Source of the DNA: Escherichia phage Bf23
Sequence record: OR083247.1
DNA: 64,000 bases
Strand: one strand, 5' to 3'
The translations under genes and the position numbers were made by a program. Positions within the stretch are counted from its first letter, which is position 1; each line of letters starts with the position of its first letter. Under the pieces are notes generated by a model that worked only from the letters and a program-made list of their open reading frames with translations, searched no databases and had not been told where the DNA came from. This document shows positions 1 through 4,531 of this stretch, piece after piece.

Positions 1-55
1 CGAACCCCCAACTTCTGGTTGGCAACCAAAAATTATACCCTTTAACTACGAACGC
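1..55 (-). tRNA. tRNA-Gly(GCC), 3' part cut by window edge
   Basis: Minus-strand fold: acceptor GCGTTCG, D-arm GTTA/AAGGGTA/TAAT, anticodon stem TTTGG/CCAGA (one G-U), loop TTGCCAA; T-loop runs off the window start. Confidence 0.5.
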
Positions 56-64
56 AAAATAAGT

Positions 65-186
65 CATTCTAGGCAGGATTCGAACCTGCTATCACTTGTG
101 CGGACTTACGAGAACCATTCTTTCACTCGAATCGAACGAGCTTCTGCCCTAGCCAAGCTGGTTTCCCCATCAACCACGCTAGAATG
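65..186 (-). ncRNA. tRNA-like element, non-canonical (about 121 nt, no encoded CCA)
   Basis: T-arm GCAGG/TTCGAAT/CCTGC at 73-89; perfect 7-bp acceptor-like pairing between 66-72 and 179-185; D-arm-like TGGT..ACCA; no canonical anticodon arm found. Confidence 0.3.
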
Positions 187-307
187 TTTGATTGTTTTCA
201 GTGCAAGAGTCCGAGTCTTGGACACGACCGCTTCGCAAGTACATAGGCAGCTTATCATGAGTCAGCACTTCCGAATTGCTAGCTCCGTGTTCTGCACTGA
301 AATTTTA

Positions 308-655
308 TTAGTTTAACCGTAAAGTATTATCTACTTCACCATTAATTGTTCGGCATTCCTCTGGGATTGTCGGAGTGGCCTTGTATTCCCACCACTCAGC
401 ACCGTCATACTCCCCACGTTCTAGCCAAGTTCCATCGGCAAACCATACATTACCATAAAGTAATTGTCCACCGTATCCAGAATCATATTCAAAGTCTAGG
501 TTATTAAGAAAATCCTCAATATCTTCTTCTGTATAGCCTAAAGGTAGTACCCAAACTTTTTTATCCCCATAATACCCGAATTCTATTTTAATACACTTAA
601 CTTCAGAATTAGTATTTTTTAAGGCAAGTAACAACTCTTCTTTGGCATTACGCAT
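308..655 (-). CDS. hypothetical protein (115 aa)
   Basis: ORF on the same strand as neighbouring early genes; no recognised motif. Confidence 0.45.
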   Translation of the reverse strand: MRNAKEELLLALKNTNSEVKCIKIEFGYYGDKKVWVLPLGYTEEDIEDFLNNLDFEYDSGYGGQLLYGNVWFADGTWLERGEYDGAEWWEYKATPTIPEECRTINGEVDNTLRLN

Positions 656-680
656 AGTATATTCTCATACTGAATTATTT

Positions 681-757
681 TGGCGCGACCGATGGGATTT
701 GAACCCACATTCTCTCCCGTGACAGGGGAGTACCATTACCAAGCCAGCCCCGGTCGC
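681..757 (-). tRNA. tRNA-Asp(GTC)
   Basis: Acceptor GCGACCG/CGGTCGC, anticodon stem CTCCC/GGGAG, loop CTGTCAC, T-arm GTGGG/TTCAAAT/CCCAT, discriminator G, CCA encoded (TGG at 681-683 on plus). Confidence 0.8.
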
Positions 758-766
758 ATAATTTAT

Positions 767-952
767 TTACTCAGCTTTGAGTTTTTCAATAGCTGCATTA
801 AGTTCTTTAAGAAACTCTTTTCGTACATTAAGACGATTGAGACTTACTAGTATATCATGTTTAAGTTCTTCGATGTATTTCTTCTCAACTTCAATATTGT
901 TGATAGTGCTATCACGATGAACCTCTAGCTGTGCAATTACGTTCTTAGACAT
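767..952 (-). CDS. hypothetical small coiled-coil protein (61 aa)
   Basis: ORF track; charged heptad-like sequence. Confidence 0.35.
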   Translation of the reverse strand: MSKNVIAQLEVHRDSTINNIEVEKKYIEELKHDILVSLNRLNVRKEFLKELNAAIEKLKAE

Positions 953-1054
953 ACTTATTTCCTCAGTTATTAATGAAAATGGTATCTGTGGCTGAATTCG
1001 ATGTCAGCAATGATAGCTGGTTGGCTACCGGTTTACTTAACTCTACACAGAATT

Positions 1055-1132
1055 TGGCGGTTCCTGCTGGATTCGAACCAGCAACCCTCAACTTAACAAG
1101 ATGCCGCTCTAACCAATTAGAGCTAAGGAACC
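1055..1132 (-). tRNA. tRNA-Asn(GTT)
   Basis: Acceptor GGTTCCT/AGGAACC, D-arm GCTC..GAGC, loop TTGTTAA, T-arm GCTGG/TTCGAAT/CCAGC, discriminator G, CCA encoded; anticodon stem has mismatches (3 of 5 pairs). Confidence 0.6.
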
Positions 1133-1627
1133 ATATAAGTCAGAACTAGAGTTAATACGTTCTAGATATTTACTAAGATCTCTAGAATTTATACTAAACC
1201 ACTCATGTTCTTTTAAATCTTTGAAATACTGGTGAATTAGTTTTTCACCTTTTCGTTTGTCAAACCAAAAAGACCAATGCTCTAACTTATAATCCCTATA
1301 AGGGGAATAAGTCTGATATTGAGCTAATCTCTCTTTTGGATTTTGACTCATGCCTATTTTATACTGATTTTTCCATGCAGGATTACTAATACAGTATACA
1401 AAACCTTCAGAAATAGGAAGTTTATTTTCCTGCTTAAACTTTATAAAGGAAAGTGCAGCAAGTTTTCTCGAATACATAGTATTTGTATTCTTTTTGGTAT
1501 TACCATTGGTTCCTGAAAGATTTATATATTCTTCCATAAATCTTTGGATTAGTTCTGCAGTTATATAGAAGGGCTCATTAGTAACAACGCCTTTCTTTAC
1601 CAAACTATCAAAAACTTTTGTATGCAC
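1109..1627 (-). CDS. GIY-YIG / T5orf172-like domain protein (172 aa)
   Basis: Motif GFVYCISNP..YKIGMSQNP..RLAQYQT matches the GIY-YIG-like T5orf172 pattern; 3' end overlaps tRNA-Asn by about 24 nt. Confidence 0.55.
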   Translation of the reverse strand: MHTKVFDSLVKKGVVTNEPFYITAELIQRFMEEYINLSGTNGNTKKNTNTMYSRKLAALSFIKFKQENKLPISEGFVYCISNPAWKNQYKIGMSQNPKERLAQYQTYSPYRDYKLEHWSFWFDKRKGEKLIHQYFKDLKEHEWFSINSRDLSKYLERINSSSDLYGSLALIG

Positions 1628-1648
1628 TACGCCTTTCCTTTAGTAATT

Positions 1649-1724
1649 TGGACGACCGCATGAGATTTGAACTCACATAAAAAGGATTTGCAATCCTTCG
1701 CCTAAGCCATTCAGCCAACGGTCG
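1649..1724 (-). tRNA. tRNA-Cys(GCA)
   Basis: Anticodon stem AAGGA/TCCTT, loop TTGCAAA, T-arm GTGAG/TTCAAAT/CTCAT, acceptor 7 bp with one G-U, discriminator U73 (Cys identity element), CCA encoded. Confidence 0.8.
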
Positions 1725-1902
1725 ATTTATCTTGTTTTTCGAGATCTTCAAATTCTAAATCATTGAAGTTCCCTAGAGTACGGGAGTAGAACCCGTCTCC
1801 TGCGTCATAGCCTGATTTGCCACAATCACACATTTTAAATTCACGAAGATGTGTAAAAACATGTTCAGAACCACAACACTTAAATCTAACTAATCGTTTC
1901 AT
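1711..1902 (-). CDS. small Cys-rich protein, possible zinc ribbon (63 aa)
   Basis: CC..H..C.C spacing in the translated ORF; stop overlaps the tRNA-Cys 5' end. Confidence 0.4.
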   Translation of the reverse strand: MKRLVRFKCCGSEHVFTHLREFKMCDCGKSGYDAGDGFYSRTLGNFNDLEFEDLEKQDKSTVG

Positions 1903-1931
1903 TAGCTTCTCCAGTTCAATTTATGTAATTA

Positions 1932-2240
1932 TTATATAGAACTTTTGGAAACTAAGCAACTACATTTTTTTAAGAATTTGATGCCTTTCTTTTTCTTCTT
2001 ATATTTCCACGTTAATGGATTTTGTCGATTATGAACGCTTGAGATCTTTGTCTCGTCAAAGTTCTTCAATATCATGTAATCACAGGATAATTGTTTTAGT
2101 GGAATGTGATCCCCGTCAAAAGCGTATACATAAGGCTGTTGACTAGCACGATAATGATAGACTTTGTTAATTCTACGTTTCAGCGACTTATCCGCACAGT
2201 AAATAAAGAAGTTTTCAGGATGCACTAGCATCTCCTTCAA
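1932..2240 (-). CDS. hypothetical protein (102 aa)
   Basis: ORF track; lysine-rich C-terminus. Confidence 0.4.
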   Translation of the reverse strand: MKEMLVHPENFFIYCADKSLKRRINKVYHYRASQQPYVYAFDGDHIPLKQLSCDYMILKNFDETKISSVHNRQNPLTWKYKKKKKGIKFLKKCSCLVSKSSI

Positions 2241-2242
2241 TT

Positions 2243-2317
2243 TGGTGCACCCTGTTCGAATTGAACGAACCTCTCAAGCTCTTCAGGCAAGCGCTAATCC
2301 ATCTCAGCTAAAGGTGC
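2243..2317 (-). tRNA. tRNA-Phe(GAA)
   Basis: Acceptor GCACCTT/AGGGTGC (one G-U), D-stem GCTG/TAGC, loop CTGAAGA, T-arm GTTCG/TTCAATT/CGAAC, discriminator A73, CCA encoded; anticodon stem carries two U-U mismatches. Confidence 0.55.
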
Positions 2318-2323
2318 AAATTT

Positions 2324-2394
2324 TGGCAGGGGTAAAGGTATTCGAAACCTTTTCATGGGTTTTGTAGGCCCATTTGCAACCTATGCGTACCCCA
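2324..2394 (-). tRNA. tRNA-like gene, anticodon unassigned (short, possibly degenerate)
   Basis: CCA encoded, T-arm AAGGT/TTCGAAT/ACCTT, 6-bp acceptor GGGGTA/TACCCC; middle region only 35 nt and no canonical 7-nt anticodon loop resolved. Confidence 0.35.
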
Positions 2395-2403
2395 ATTGTT
2401 AAT

Positions 2404-2480
2404 TGGCGTCCTGTGCGGGGATCGAACCCGCAAACCCTACCTTGAAAGGGTAGTGACTTTACCCGTTTGTCTAACAGGAC
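2404..2480 (-). tRNA. tRNA-Glu(TTC)
   Basis: Perfect acceptor GTCCTGT/ACAGGAC, anticodon stem CTACC/GGTAG, loop CTTTCAA, T-arm GCGGG/TTCGATC/CCCGC, discriminator G, CCA encoded. Confidence 0.8.
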
Positions 2481-2486
2481 TTAAAT

Positions 2487-2574
2487 TGGTAGGGGAGGAT
2501 GGAGTCGAACCACCCGAGTCGCAATGACAACTAATTTACAGTCAGCTCTGCTACCACTTACAGAATACTCCCCC
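2487..2574 (-). tRNA. tRNA-Tyr(GTA), type II with long variable arm
   Basis: Anticodon loop CTGTAAA with stem GCTGA/TTAGT (two G-U), variable arm about 15 nt, T-arm GGTGG/TTCGACT/CCATC, discriminator A73, CCA encoded; 88 nt. Confidence 0.65.
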
Positions 2575-2699
2575 ATATTTGAATGAAAAGTAAGTCGGTT
2601 AAACTCAAGGTGGAATATTTCAGGATTTCCTGACTTTACCCCTCAAAGCAGCTCGCTTAGTTACTTCTCATTCAGATATGTTTTCCAAATTAGATAACT

Positions 2700-2728
2700 A
2701 TTATACCAAGTTTTAGGGCACTGAGCAA
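2700..2728 (-). promoter_or_regulatory. sigma70-type promoter reading into the tRNA cluster (-35 TTGCTC, 17-nt spacer, -10 TATAAT)
   Basis: Hexamers read on the minus strand immediately upstream of tRNA-Tyr. Confidence 0.5.
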
Positions 2729-2756
2729 GTCAGATTTTGAAGAACTTGCTCAGTGC
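2718..2756. terminator. 12-bp perfect hairpin GCACTGAGCAAG/CTTGCTCAGTGC downstream of ORF 2765-3040
   Basis: Inverted repeat with 15-nt loop; overlaps the -35 of the tRNA promoter; no strong U-tract, so could be a processing or attenuation structure. Confidence 0.4.
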
Positions 2757-2764
2757 TGTATTAG

Positions 2765-3040
2765 TTAGTCGAACTTAGGAGTGACAGCTAAGGAAAACGG
2801 AAGTTCAAAAATTTCTTCGCCCTCATTACTAACGGTAACTACACGACCTTTAAGTTCAGACATTGAAATATCAATATCAGCTTTTGCATCTGGAGCCATG
2901 CCAGCTTCAATACACTTAGCTTTAACTTCCGGTAAAAGCTCTACATTATAGAGATAGAGCCACTCAATCTCACCTTCCCAGTCTTCCCAGGATTTACAGA
3001 TTGCACTTTCAATACCAGTTGCTACAACACGATTTTGCAT
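2765..3040 (-). CDS. hypothetical protein (91 aa)
   Basis: ORF track; same-strand context. Confidence 0.5.
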   Translation of the reverse strand: MQNRVVATGIESAICKSWEDWEGEIEWLYLYNVELLPEVKAKCIEAGMAPDAKADIDISMSELKGRVVTVSNEGEEIFELPFSLAVTPKFD

Positions 3041-3130
3041 TAGTTAACTCCTTCATCAATTTATATAACTATTATATCAGAAATTTAAAGCAAAAGGCAA
3101 GTACATTTTTAAAAATTCTATTCGGAGGAG

Positions 3131-3337
3131 CTAAACTCCAGATTCTTCGGCCAAGTCTAGGCTAATAAGAGTTATAGCCATAATTGCTGCACCGTGTTCT
3201 TTTTCTCCGGTGTTTTTAGCAGAGTCTATAATATCCTTAATCTGCTCGTAATAACTTTTTACTTCTTGTTCAATGCCCGCCTCGGCTATCATGCCTTTAG
3301 TCATGAGTCGTTGCATGGTAATTTCAGGATTAGCCAT
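3131..3337 (-). CDS. hypothetical protein (68 aa)
   Basis: ORF track. Confidence 0.4.
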   Translation of the reverse strand: MANPEITMQRLMTKGMIAEAGIEQEVKSYYEQIKDIIDSAKNTGEKEHGAAIMAITLISLDLAEESGV

Positions 3338-3526
3338 GTTGTTTCTCCAGTTTCATTTTTAATAGTTTACAAATGAAGTCAATATCTTCATCTGTGCCTA
3401 AGTCTCTATCCTCAAGGGTCGCCTTGAAGTTTTTCGTCAATTCCATGAGGATGACCTCTCTAGAACGACGTGTTGGTGGCGGAGGAGATCTATACATCTT
3501 AATTCCTTAATTTGGTAGGGGTTATA

Positions 3527-4210
3527 TCATCTATTTTTCTTAATACTTTTAGGATCTTTCCCTGTTAGGGACTTATACCTTTTCCTTAATCCAGTATCAG
3601 ACAATCCTAGTTCTTTGGAGGCACGAATCCAGGAATATTTAGATACCCAGTACTCTATTTGCTCCACAGTAATATCTGGATTTATAGTTATCTCTTTAGG
3701 AGTACATGATTTACAGTGTGTTGCTCTTGAGCTAATTTCGCAGTGACAAATAGCACACGTATTTACAGTCCTTTCTGTATACCTGCCAATATTTTTGCCT
3801 GCATGAGTAGGTGTTAGTGCATGGCAATTTGGGCATAGGAGGGCTAAGTTATCCCATTCATTATTATAGTGATTTCCATCCTTATGTTCAAGTTCTAAAG
3901 GAATTGGTTTATCTAACCAACTTTCTAAGCCACAACTCTCACATTTATGTGGTTTTAGCCCCTCGTTAAGAATTTTATTCTTTAGTTTATAGGAAGAAAT
4001 AGGGCTGCCGTTATATAAATACTCTGTTGCAGACTTATATTTATTATCATACTGCCTATTCGCAGGAATAACTACTATTCCTAGTTTTCCTAAATATGCT
4101 TCCAAAGTGTTCGAGGAGCAGGATAGCATTCTTGCTATCTCTGCTTTAGATTTTCCCTGAGCTATCCACTGAGCTATTTCTTCCTTTCTATCTAGTATAT
4201 CAGTTCTCAT
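3527..4210 (-). CDS. HNH homing endonuclease (227 aa) with N-terminal HTH
   Basis: HNH core ELEHKDGNHYNNEWDNLALLCPNCHA plus additional Cys clusters; free-standing gene beside the tRNA cluster. Confidence 0.75.
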   Translation of the reverse strand: MRTDILDRKEEIAQWIAQGKSKAEIARMLSCSSNTLEAYLGKLGIVVIPANRQYDNKYKSATEYLYNGSPISSYKLKNKILNEGLKPHKCESCGLESWLDKPIPLELEHKDGNHYNNEWDNLALLCPNCHALTPTHAGKNIGRYTERTVNTCAICHCEISSRATHCKSCTPKEITINPDITVEQIEYWVSKYSWIRASKELGLSDTGLRKRYKSLTGKDPKSIKKNR

Positions 4211-4233: not shown

Positions 4234-4272
4234 TGGTGGCTCCCCGAGGATTCGAACCTACATCTTCCACCA
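4234..4272 (-). ncRNA. tRNA-like minihelix (T-arm-like hairpin with encoded CCA)
   Basis: TGG, then stem TGGTGG/CCACCA enclosing a GGATTCGAACC T-loop motif; no partner acceptor strand or anticodon arm found; lies in the ORF-free 4211-4568 region. Confidence 0.3.
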
Positions 4273-4531
4273 GTTACGGCTTGATAATACCAATTATACT
4301 AGGACGGCAGTGTTACTACATAAGTGATTTCCACACCCCACTATTTATAAATTAGAGAAGAGTTTAGGGGAGAGGTTTCAGACGCCCCATTTTATACGTT
4401 CTAGCCACTAACCGGGATTGCCGCCCCCTGTGTACTAGTTTTACAACTAACCCACCGACTCTATTCAGTGCACTCCGGTTGGGATTCTGCACTCAGCGTA
4501 ATCGGCTCGCTGTTCCCTAATTTATGAATAT

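Follow-up and report, generated by a model that had tools for sequence, protein, structure and literature searches.

Phage tRNAs are now seen as countermeasures to immunity that acts by cutting tRNA, and several of the enzymes concerned cut the anticodon stem, not the loop. Here we describe three tRNA genes of Escherichia phage BF23, encoding tRNA-Phe, tRNA-Asn and a reduced molecule of 71 nucleotides (nt), in a 64,000-nt stretch of sequence record OR083247.1 (hereafter the window, to which all positions refer). Among the closest described systems is that of PARIS and the tRNAs of phage T5. Cleavage by AriB, the PARIS effector, falls between positions 40 and 41 of host tRNA-Lys and tRNA-Thr and, less efficiently, of tRNA-Asn; the enzyme reads a UAAU motif, and a change of U39 ends the cleavage of tRNA-Lys (Burman et al., 2024, PMC11464382; Belukhina et al., 2025, PMC12409363). 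The T5 tRNAs for Lys(UUU), Thr(UGU) and Asn(GUU) are all substituted at or near the AriB cut site, and their joint expression saves cells and phages from PARIS (PMC12409363; PMC11464382). A second Toprim nuclease, P2 OLD, carries out 'anticodon-arm amputation' at paired CNG motifs, with cuts at 28|29 and 40|41, and has E. coli tRNA-Asn among its substrates, and a phage tRNA-Thr resists it only with a changed motif plus the loss of one stem pair (PMC12445682). The Schlafen nuclease RorSlfn5, which is activated by T5, cuts at 30|31 (PMC13056530). An eLife paper from 2023 on anticodon-loop mutations of phage tRNAs makes no mention of stem mismatches, Phe, Asn or Trp.

Positions 1-4200 of the window are 99.9% identical to AJ604530 ("Enterobacteria phage BF23 tRNA gene region") and 97% identical to T5; the region belongs to the cluster of tRNA genes in BF23, a T5-like phage. 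Every tRNA gene of the region lies on the minus strand, and the three genes in question were found where a first-pass annotation, made from the sequence alone, had placed them. Both AJ604530 (BF23) and AY543070 (T5) name them in GenBank, as tRNAF, tRNAN and tRNAW:

2243..2317, minus strand: tRNA-Phe(GAA), 75 nt with encoded CCA (ARAGORN; Rfam tRNA model, 45.8 bits; tRNAF in BF23 and T5)
1055..1132, minus strand: tRNA-Asn(GUU), 78 nt with CCA (ARAGORN; Rfam tRNA model, 55.4 bits)
2324..2394, minus strand: short gene of 71 nt with the form of a reduced tRNA, the BF23 allele of T5 tRNAW (minimum-free-energy fold, ARAGORN -mt, GenBank)

The same sequences of all three genes are found in many independently sequenced phages, which excludes a sequencing artefact. 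With moderate confidence, we read tRNA-Phe and tRNA-Asn as working tRNAs whose stems we propose to be remodelled for nuclease escape, and the 71-nt gene as a reduced tRNA-Trp of which the BF23 copy is probably disabled. Neither the genes nor the escape principle is novel, the former having stood in GenBank since 2004 and the latter having appeared in print in 2024-2025. What is new is that a tandem U·U in tRNA-Phe is fixed in the T5 clade under selection, and that a miniature tRNA-Trp which had been overlooked is conserved widely, with analogues in unrelated phages.

The anticodon stem of tRNA-Phe reads CUUGC/GCUUG and consists of C27-G43, U28·U42, U29·U41, G30-C40 and C31-G39, with the mismatches at U28(2290)·U42(2276) and U29(2289)·U41(2277). 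The alignment to the Rfam tRNA model (RF00005) marks two adjacent non-standard pairs ('vv' marks) and the ARAGORN structure agrees, so that the two adjacent U-U mismatches seen in the first-pass annotation are confirmed. The gene passes the curated gathering score of RF00005 (29 bits). By alignment it has G37 where E. coli pheV has A37. Relatives of tRNA-Phe were gathered from the IMG/VR database by their conserved D arm, and 16 distinct sequences were aligned, nine from the T5 clade and seven from outgroup phages. Across this family 93.5% of the cells of the cloverleaf pair and 12 of the 21 pairs have changed on both sides; shuffles and slid registers of the alignment all fall far short of the true pairing. 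Covariation is seen at all five anticodon-stem pairs, and the registration of the anticodon arms, originally folded by hand, thus holds by two programs (the Rfam model and ARAGORN) and by the family. RNAfold gives a shifted anticodon arm of 4 base pairs (bp) for the single tRNA-Phe sequence, which is ruled out by the covariation at all five canonical pairs.

The history of the two mismatches can be read from the same alignment. In the outgroup, pair 29-41 is standard in all seven sequences and 28-42 in six (the seventh has C·A), with several pair types represented, while in the T5 clade both are U·U in nine of nine distinct sequences. Each mismatch could be repaired by any of four single substitutions (eight in all), none of which is seen in the nine clade sequences. 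Elsewhere in these same genes 7 of 14 acceptor positions and 6 of 10 T-stem positions vary through compensatory changes; the anticodon stem has 1 variable position of 10 and its loop 0 of 7, and the D arm is invariant to the same degree as the anticodon loop. Taken together, the pairing in the outgroup, the clade-wide U·U, the lack of repairs and the compensation elsewhere show that the tandem U·U is not damage: in a gene under tRNA constraints it is derived, has become fixed and is maintained. As a separate observation on this family, some T5-clade tRNA-Phe genes (L004 Sepoy, L006 IrmaTschudi, L029 and L041) have a T loop of AUCGUUA or AUCAUUA, with A54/U58 for the usual U54/A58, which suggests that the reverse-Hoogsteen pair of the T loop has been swapped by covariation; ARAGORN misses tRNA-Phe in Sepoy and IrmaTschudi.

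The anticodon stem of tRNA-Asn consists of G27(1104)·A43(1088), C28-G42, A29-U41, U30(1101)·U40(1091) and C31-G39, and the Rfam alignment, in which the gene again passes the gathering score, flags two separate non-standard pairs. The single U-U mismatch previously noted is thus U30·U40, and a second mismatch, G27·A43, had been missed. The gene is identical in sequence to T5 tRNA-Asn and near-invariant in the loci read, being identical in 11 (including Pectobacterium phage My1) and differing by a single base in 3. Aligned with E. coli asnT, positions 36-41 are UAAGUU in place of UAAUCC, so that both the UAAU motif and the AriB cut site (UAAUC|C in the host) are altered, through substitutions at positions 39-41. 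The CNG motifs C28GG30 and C40CG42 of asnT are CAU and UUG in BF23 tRNA-Asn; it has thus lost both motifs and has two unpaired stem positions, where the resistance of phage tRNA-Thr to P2 OLD takes a changed motif and one lost pair (PMC12445682). Among the other T5 tRNAs that counter PARIS, tRNA-Thr carries U28·U42, kept despite very different acceptor and T arms, and tRNA-Lys carries C27·U43.

The stem mismatches of BF23 tRNA-Phe (28·42, 29·41) and tRNA-Asn (27·43, 30·40) fall where defence nucleases that cut the anticodon stem recognise or cut their substrates, and stems remodelled in this way would leave the phage copies uncut to replace depleted host tRNAs. Remodelling of the anticodon stem as nuclease escape is established for the tRNA set of this phage. 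For tRNA-Asn in particular, escape is supported: the change at the cut site is directly observed and the biological effect is known from the published work on the identical T5 tRNA. For tRNA-Phe, escape is a plausible purpose of the mismatches, and the tandem U·U spans the 28|29 site of P2 OLD.

Several points weigh against carrying the argument over from Asn to Phe. tRNA-Phe lies outside the AriB targets, and the PARIS papers stress the sequence of the cut site, not lost pairing. The OLD work concerns tRNA-Thr, and by alignment the CNG motif is absent from E. coli pheV, which makes OLD no obvious selective agent for Phe. Our literature search turned up no defence nuclease that demonstrably relies on cleaving host tRNA-Phe, the sole hint being a cleavage signature on tRNA-Phe(GAA) with RorSlfn5. 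Even for Asn, the PARIS text consulted shows rescue by over-expression and not directly that T5 tRNA-Asn is left uncleaved. The nuclease escape that the first-pass annotation offered as one explanation for all three genes is therefore upheld for Asn, by the literature on the identical T5 tRNA and the P2 OLD precedent, and is a plausible suggestion for Phe; in the case of the short gene nothing was found linking it to any nuclease.

The mismatches might instead be tolerated quirks. U·U stacks in an A-form helix at little cost, drift could have fixed it once in an AT-rich and fast-evolving phage, and the arm could be constrained for other reasons, such as contacts with the synthetase, modification enzymes or the ribosome. 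A mismatch alone is not special, since 8 of the 22 T5 tRNAs tabulated have at least one non-standard anticodon-stem pair, and terminal unpairing of this stem is common among bacterial tRNAs generally, tRNAs with a 4-bp anticodon stem occurring in 85.6% of bacterial genomes (PMC13092985). The want of a nuclease selecting tRNA-Phe in our literature search fits this explanation too, as does the D arm of the Phe family, which together with the anticodon loop is just as invariant as the stem. An internal tandem at 28·42 and 29·41 differs, however, from the terminal unpairing common in bacteria, and the missing single-step repairs contrast with acceptor and T stems that changed freely; moreover, the Asn changes coincide with mapped cut sites and motifs of AriB and OLD, in a tRNA that has an anti-PARIS effect. 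We consider the quirk explanation unlikely, if still worth serious attention, and prefer to see maintained, functional remodelling in both stems.

The third gene departs from the standard tRNA in another way. All three genes have an acceptor stem with discriminator and CCA and a 5-bp T stem with a UUCRANY loop (in the short gene with U1·U72 and U53-A61), and all three have canonical anticodon loops with U33 and G37 or A37; for Phe and Asn, the canonical acceptor, T arm, discriminator and anticodon loop described in the first-pass annotation are thus borne out. Standard pairs in the anticodon stem number three in Phe, beside the tandem U·U, three in Asn, beside G·A and U·U, and four in the short gene, beside C·A. 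A canonical D arm (U8, 3-4 bp, a loop of 7-11 nt, G18G19) is present in Phe and Asn, whereas the short gene has C8 and 3 bp closing the loop UAGGU. Its parts are as follows:

2393-2388 with 2334-2329, minus strand: acceptor stem of 6 bp, plus U1(2394)·U72(2328); discriminator G2327; CCA at 2326-2324
2376..2386, minus strand: miniature D hairpin, GCA-UAGGU-UGC, with a 3-bp stem and a 5-nt loop that keeps GG (fold, ARAGORN, covariance-model alignment)
2356..2372, minus strand: anticodon arm, UGGGC-CUACAAA-ACCCA, with anticodon ACA at 2365-2363 and C31(2368)·A39(2360) unpaired
2335..2351, minus strand: T arm, AAGGU-UUCGAAU-ACCUU, with U53-A61 for the usual G53-C61 (fold, Rfam alignment)

A single C precedes the D hairpin instead of U8 and N9, positions 8-22 span 15 nt where a D arm plus its flanking unpaired nucleotides needs about 19, and the covariance-model alignment shows a 3-nt deletion and a non-standard D stem. 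The earlier description of this gene as having acceptor, T arm and CCA but too few nucleotides for a D arm plus an anticodon arm is thus correct by fold, ARAGORN and Rfam alignment. ARAGORN misses the gene in its bacterial mode even at -ps80 and finds it only in its metazoan-mitochondrial mode. Metazoan mitochondrial tRNAs are likewise reduced in the D arm, yet the phage infects a bacterium with ordinary translation machinery, and its gene has a canonical T loop, a D-loop GG and an encoded CCA, and we see no evidence that the two are related.

The same annotation had called this tRNA unassignable, which is not the case: GenBank has tRNAW in both AJ604530 and AY543070 (both entries from the Ksenzenko laboratory), and the gene belongs to the T5 tRNA-Trp lineage. 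The AJ604530 tRNAW is identical to the short gene, and T5 tRNAW, in the same position, differs at 2 of 71 positions (C34 in T5 for A34 in BF23, and U70 for C70), whereas the gene goes uncalled in the 2023 BF23 genome paper and in more than 100 related genomes annotated automatically. BLAST finds the short gene in 117 INPHARED phage records at 93% identity or more, almost none of which annotate it; at 99% or more only the two BF23 records are found. Scans of IMG/VR for the short gene gave five contigs, and variants were therefore sampled from individual GenBank records. Across 15 phages only 5 of its 71 columns vary, compared with 61-76% of columns in the flanking Tyr, Glu and Phe genes of the same phages, which makes it the best-conserved element of the neighbourhood. 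Three of the substitutions fall in stems (position 1 U to G, making G1·U72; position 22 A to G, turning A-U into G·U; position 70 C to U, turning G-C into G·U), and all three keep or make a pair; the others are one junction nucleotide and the A34 of BF23. This conservation argues against neutral decay.

The 71-nt gene is most economically read as a tRNA-Trp of reduced structure that has been conserved. About 310 other T5-like records have a 77-nt tRNA-Trp(CCA) in the slot between Glu and Phe, and T5 has no tRNA-Trp besides tRNAW. By alignment, the T5-type short gene shares with E. coli trpT positions 2-5 and 68-73 and the loop CUCCAAA, and the anticodon arm GGGC-CUCCAAA-ACCC, including C31·A39, is frequent among phage tRNA-Trp genes. 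The anticodon is CCA in T5 and in every other short-gene sequence read; only BF23 has A34. Moreover, reduced genes resembling tRNA-Trp(CCA) that have a D stem of 3 bp and a loop of 5 nt (7 nt in L082) are present in the IMG/VR phages L056, L076 and L082, inside tRNA clusters of unrelated phages that include the jumbo phages L056 (393 kb) and L082 (363 kb), and they too are found by ARAGORN in mitochondrial mode only. The T arm of the L056 gene is itself irregular.

We made some further observations on phage tRNA-Trp genes. At L082:8518-8700 a canonical tRNA-Trp(CCA) adjoins a second Trp(CCA) gene with a 3-bp D stem, so both forms can coexist in one genome. The 77-nt tRNA-Trp (L003:329-405, L029, L076) has A1-U72 followed by mismatches at 2-71 and 3-70 (U·U and U·U; in My1 U·U and C·U; in L076 U·C and U·U), a frayed acceptor end that is conserved while pairs 4-69 to 7-66 covary, and it has U27·U43 (C27·U43 in My1). 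In L033, a T5-like genome of 108,640 bp from IMG/VR, the 77-nt tRNA-Trp has the loop CUCUAAA with the anticodon CUA, and could be a natural amber suppressor derived from tRNA-Trp.

The identity elements by which E. coli tryptophanyl-tRNA synthetase (TrpRS) recognises its tRNA are C34, C35, A36 and G73, along with acceptor pairs that support them. In the T5-type allele the anticodon CCA, G73, G2-G5/C68-C71 and U72 are as in E. coli trpT, and this molecule may be charged and used on ribosomes. The BF23 allele has A34; its anticodon ACA would read UGU, and by these identity rules A34 should impair recognition by TrpRS. Judged from its sequence, the BF23 copy is probably a disabled allele that no longer serves UGG decoding.

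Several findings weigh against a decoding tRNA-Trp. The short gene scores 21.9 bits over the full Rfam tRNA model (1-71), below the threshold of 29 (E = 0.007 in an 86-nt search); it is without U8 and G53-C61 and has U1·U72 and C31·A39. The conservation could in part reflect the recent spread of one cassette by recombination in a region rich in homing endonucleases. The 2023 paper on the BF23 genome has no tRNA-Trp in its count, the phage lives with the anticodon change, so that the gene is dispensable at least in the laboratory, and the depositors report that a version of tRNAW with a CUA anticodon gave no amber suppression. This last result carries little information, since many good T5 tRNAs bear that note too. 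Our literature search found no published description of the structure of T5 tRNA-Trp, and no expression or charging data for the short gene.

How much the low score means can be judged from a neighbouring gene. tRNA-Tyr(GUA) at 2487-2574 also falls below the Rfam tRNA gathering score, its top match being tRNA-Sec at 28.6 bits, and yet T5 tRNA-Tyr is functional by experiment (PMC11555353); a sub-threshold score is therefore weak evidence of non-function. Incidentally, T5 tRNA-Tyr is a proven suppressor of retron Eco7, and several T5-type tRNAs are evidently atypical for general models.

Decay, the other explanation offered in the first-pass annotation, would make both the mismatches and the truncated D arm damage and the RNAs uncharged. 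It can draw on the failure of the short gene to reach the thresholds of both detection tools, on the anticodon mutation in BF23, on the annotated T5 pseudogene tRNAQ2 with its two stem mismatches, on a clearly broken chimeric tRNA in the window at 4234-4308, and on the dispensability of the T5 tRNA region in deletion mutants (PMC11464382). Set against this, Phe and Asn score well above threshold and encode CCA, the Phe family shows compensatory evolution with its mismatches fixed across diverged orthologues, and T5 tRNA-Asn has biological activity; no segment of the neighbourhood is better conserved than the short gene, its stem substitutions keep pairing, and the low score counts for little, as the functional tRNA-Tyr shows. 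Pseudogenes thus fail as an explanation for Phe and Asn and fit, for the short gene, only the C34A allele of BF23; as a general account, decay appears to us highly improbable. A different possibility is that the 71-nt RNA is tRNA-like and does not decode, serving as a mark for processing by RNase P or RNase Z in the polycistronic transcript, as a decoy or inhibitor of a host enzyme that binds tRNA-Trp, or as another stable RNA in the manner of RNA1, RNA2 and RNA3. T5 and BF23 do encode several annotated tRNA-like stable RNAs, one of which, RNA3 (980-1053), likewise ends its acceptor stem in U·U, encodes CCA and lacks a D stem; amber suppression was not seen, the anticodon change is tolerated in BF23, and the PARIS authors have suggested that some over-expressed phage tRNAs may be nuclease competitors (PMC12409363). 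However, the CUCCAAA loop, G73 and the acceptor pairs match the host tRNA-Trp in all but BF23, and a processing signal needs none of them; a tRNA-Trp of standard length alternates in the same slot, and T5 has no other tRNA-Trp. A non-decoding RNA therefore seems to us a minority prospect, and a reduced tRNA-Trp remains the reading we prefer.

If the short molecule does decode, it might do something other than ordinary UGG reading. In E. coli tRNA-Trp, the Hirsh G24A change, A9C or terminal unpairing of the anticodon stem lets a CCA anticodon read UGA (PMC13092985). Elements linked to UGA reading are changed in both T5-like Trp alleles: the 77-nt allele has U27·U43, the 'top-unpinned' form, and the T5-type short tRNA-Trp combines a remodelled D arm with a terminal pair, 31·39, that does not form. 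It differs from the Blastocrithidia-like tRNA-Trp with a 4-bp stem in being unpinned at the bottom (C31·A39) with U27-A43 paired, and the BF23 copy has the anticodon ACA. The short molecule might be a functional elongator tRNA that works on bacterial ribosomes without a standard D arm, either as a near-cognate decoder of UGA supplied by the phage or as a minimal tRNA-Trp invisible to a host nuclease that reads the D arm or elbow; we regard this as a long shot. UGA is not avoided in the window, where TGA ends 14 of 75 crude open reading frames (ORFs), which is unremarkable at 39% GC and gives no support for read-through.

As to the genes around these three, ARAGORN calls Asp at 681-757, Asn at 1055-1132, Cys at 1649-1724, Phe at 2243-2317, Glu at 2404-2480 and Tyr at 2487-2574, and the manual annotations of BF23 and T5 add tRNAW precisely at 2324-2394, plus several "tRNA-like stable RNAs". 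Transcription of the minus strand would give the order Tyr-Glu-W-Phe, with Cys, Asn and Asp further downstream:

2404..2480, minus strand: tRNA-Glu(UUC), canonical, the upstream neighbour at 9 nt from the short gene (ARAGORN, Rfam, GenBank)
2487..2574, minus strand: tRNA-Tyr(GUA), first gene of the Tyr-Glu-W-Phe run (ARAGORN)
2676..2750, minus strand: predicted promoter P14a, lying upstream of Tyr-Glu-W-Phe (placed by coordinates from the AJ604530 depositor's annotation)

The annotated minus-strand ORFs trn 2.8 (1110-1628) and trn 2.7* (1712-1903) overlap the 5' ends of tRNA-Asn by about 24 nt and of tRNA-Cys by about 14 nt, so coding sequence extends into the tRNA genes. A tRNA-Gly(GCC), found in BF23 and not in T5, is cut by the start of the window, which holds its 5' 55 nt at 1-55 (minus strand).

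Lastly, the window contains further tRNA-like elements. RNA3 (980-1053, minus strand, annotated as 'tRNA-like RNA') lies 2 nt downstream of tRNA-Asn and has a folding z-score of -3.15. Its structure comprises a 6-bp acceptor-like stem ending in U·U and ACCA, an anticodon-like hairpin with a 6-nt loop and a T-like arm whose loop has 8 nt. It makes a second degenerate gene of tRNA-like form, one that the first-pass annotation had not flagged. RNA2 (62-186, minus strand, 125 nt) is tRNA-like as well, with an acceptor-like stem of 8 bp, an arm resembling the D arm and the canonical T arm GCAGG-UUCGAAU-CCUGC, and has a structured insert of about 65 nt in place of the anticodon arm. The chimeric, broken tRNA at 4234-4308 (minus strand) contains a junction repeat at 4247-4269. 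Window 4100-4269 matches AJ604530 9739-9910, including the 3' part of tRNA-Ile2(CAU), and window 4247-4586 matches AJ604530 14163-14502, the tRNA-like 5' end of rnaX, with a 23-bp overlap in T-arm sequence. The overlapping matches point to a deletion of about 4.25 kb between two T-arm repeats, relative to the BF23 record of 2004, which takes out tRNA-Ser3, tRNA-Arg, several ORFs and most of rnaX and fits the count of no tRNA-Arg in the 2023 BF23 paper. We also considered that the 5' half of the chimera came from T5 tRNA-Arg and its 3' flank; no alignment was obtained, and BLAST places this half at the 5' end of rnaX.

The overlooked gene shows that standard tools pass over a tRNA gene kept in more than 100 sequenced phages, and published tRNA repertoires of T5-like phages are thus incomplete, BF23 "lacking" Trp being a case in point. 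If E. coli charges and uses a molecule whose D stem is 3 bp and whose D loop is 5 nt, this would matter for basic tRNA biology, and if it does so as an elongator, the reduced-D-arm Trp genes in the tRNA clusters of unrelated jumbo phages would be a recurrent phage invention. If the tandem U·U of tRNA-Phe is a resistance feature, it points to a yet-to-be-identified nuclease directed at tRNA-Phe in enterobacteria, and fixed stem mismatches would then be a simple sequence signature by which 'armoured' phage tRNAs could be predicted.

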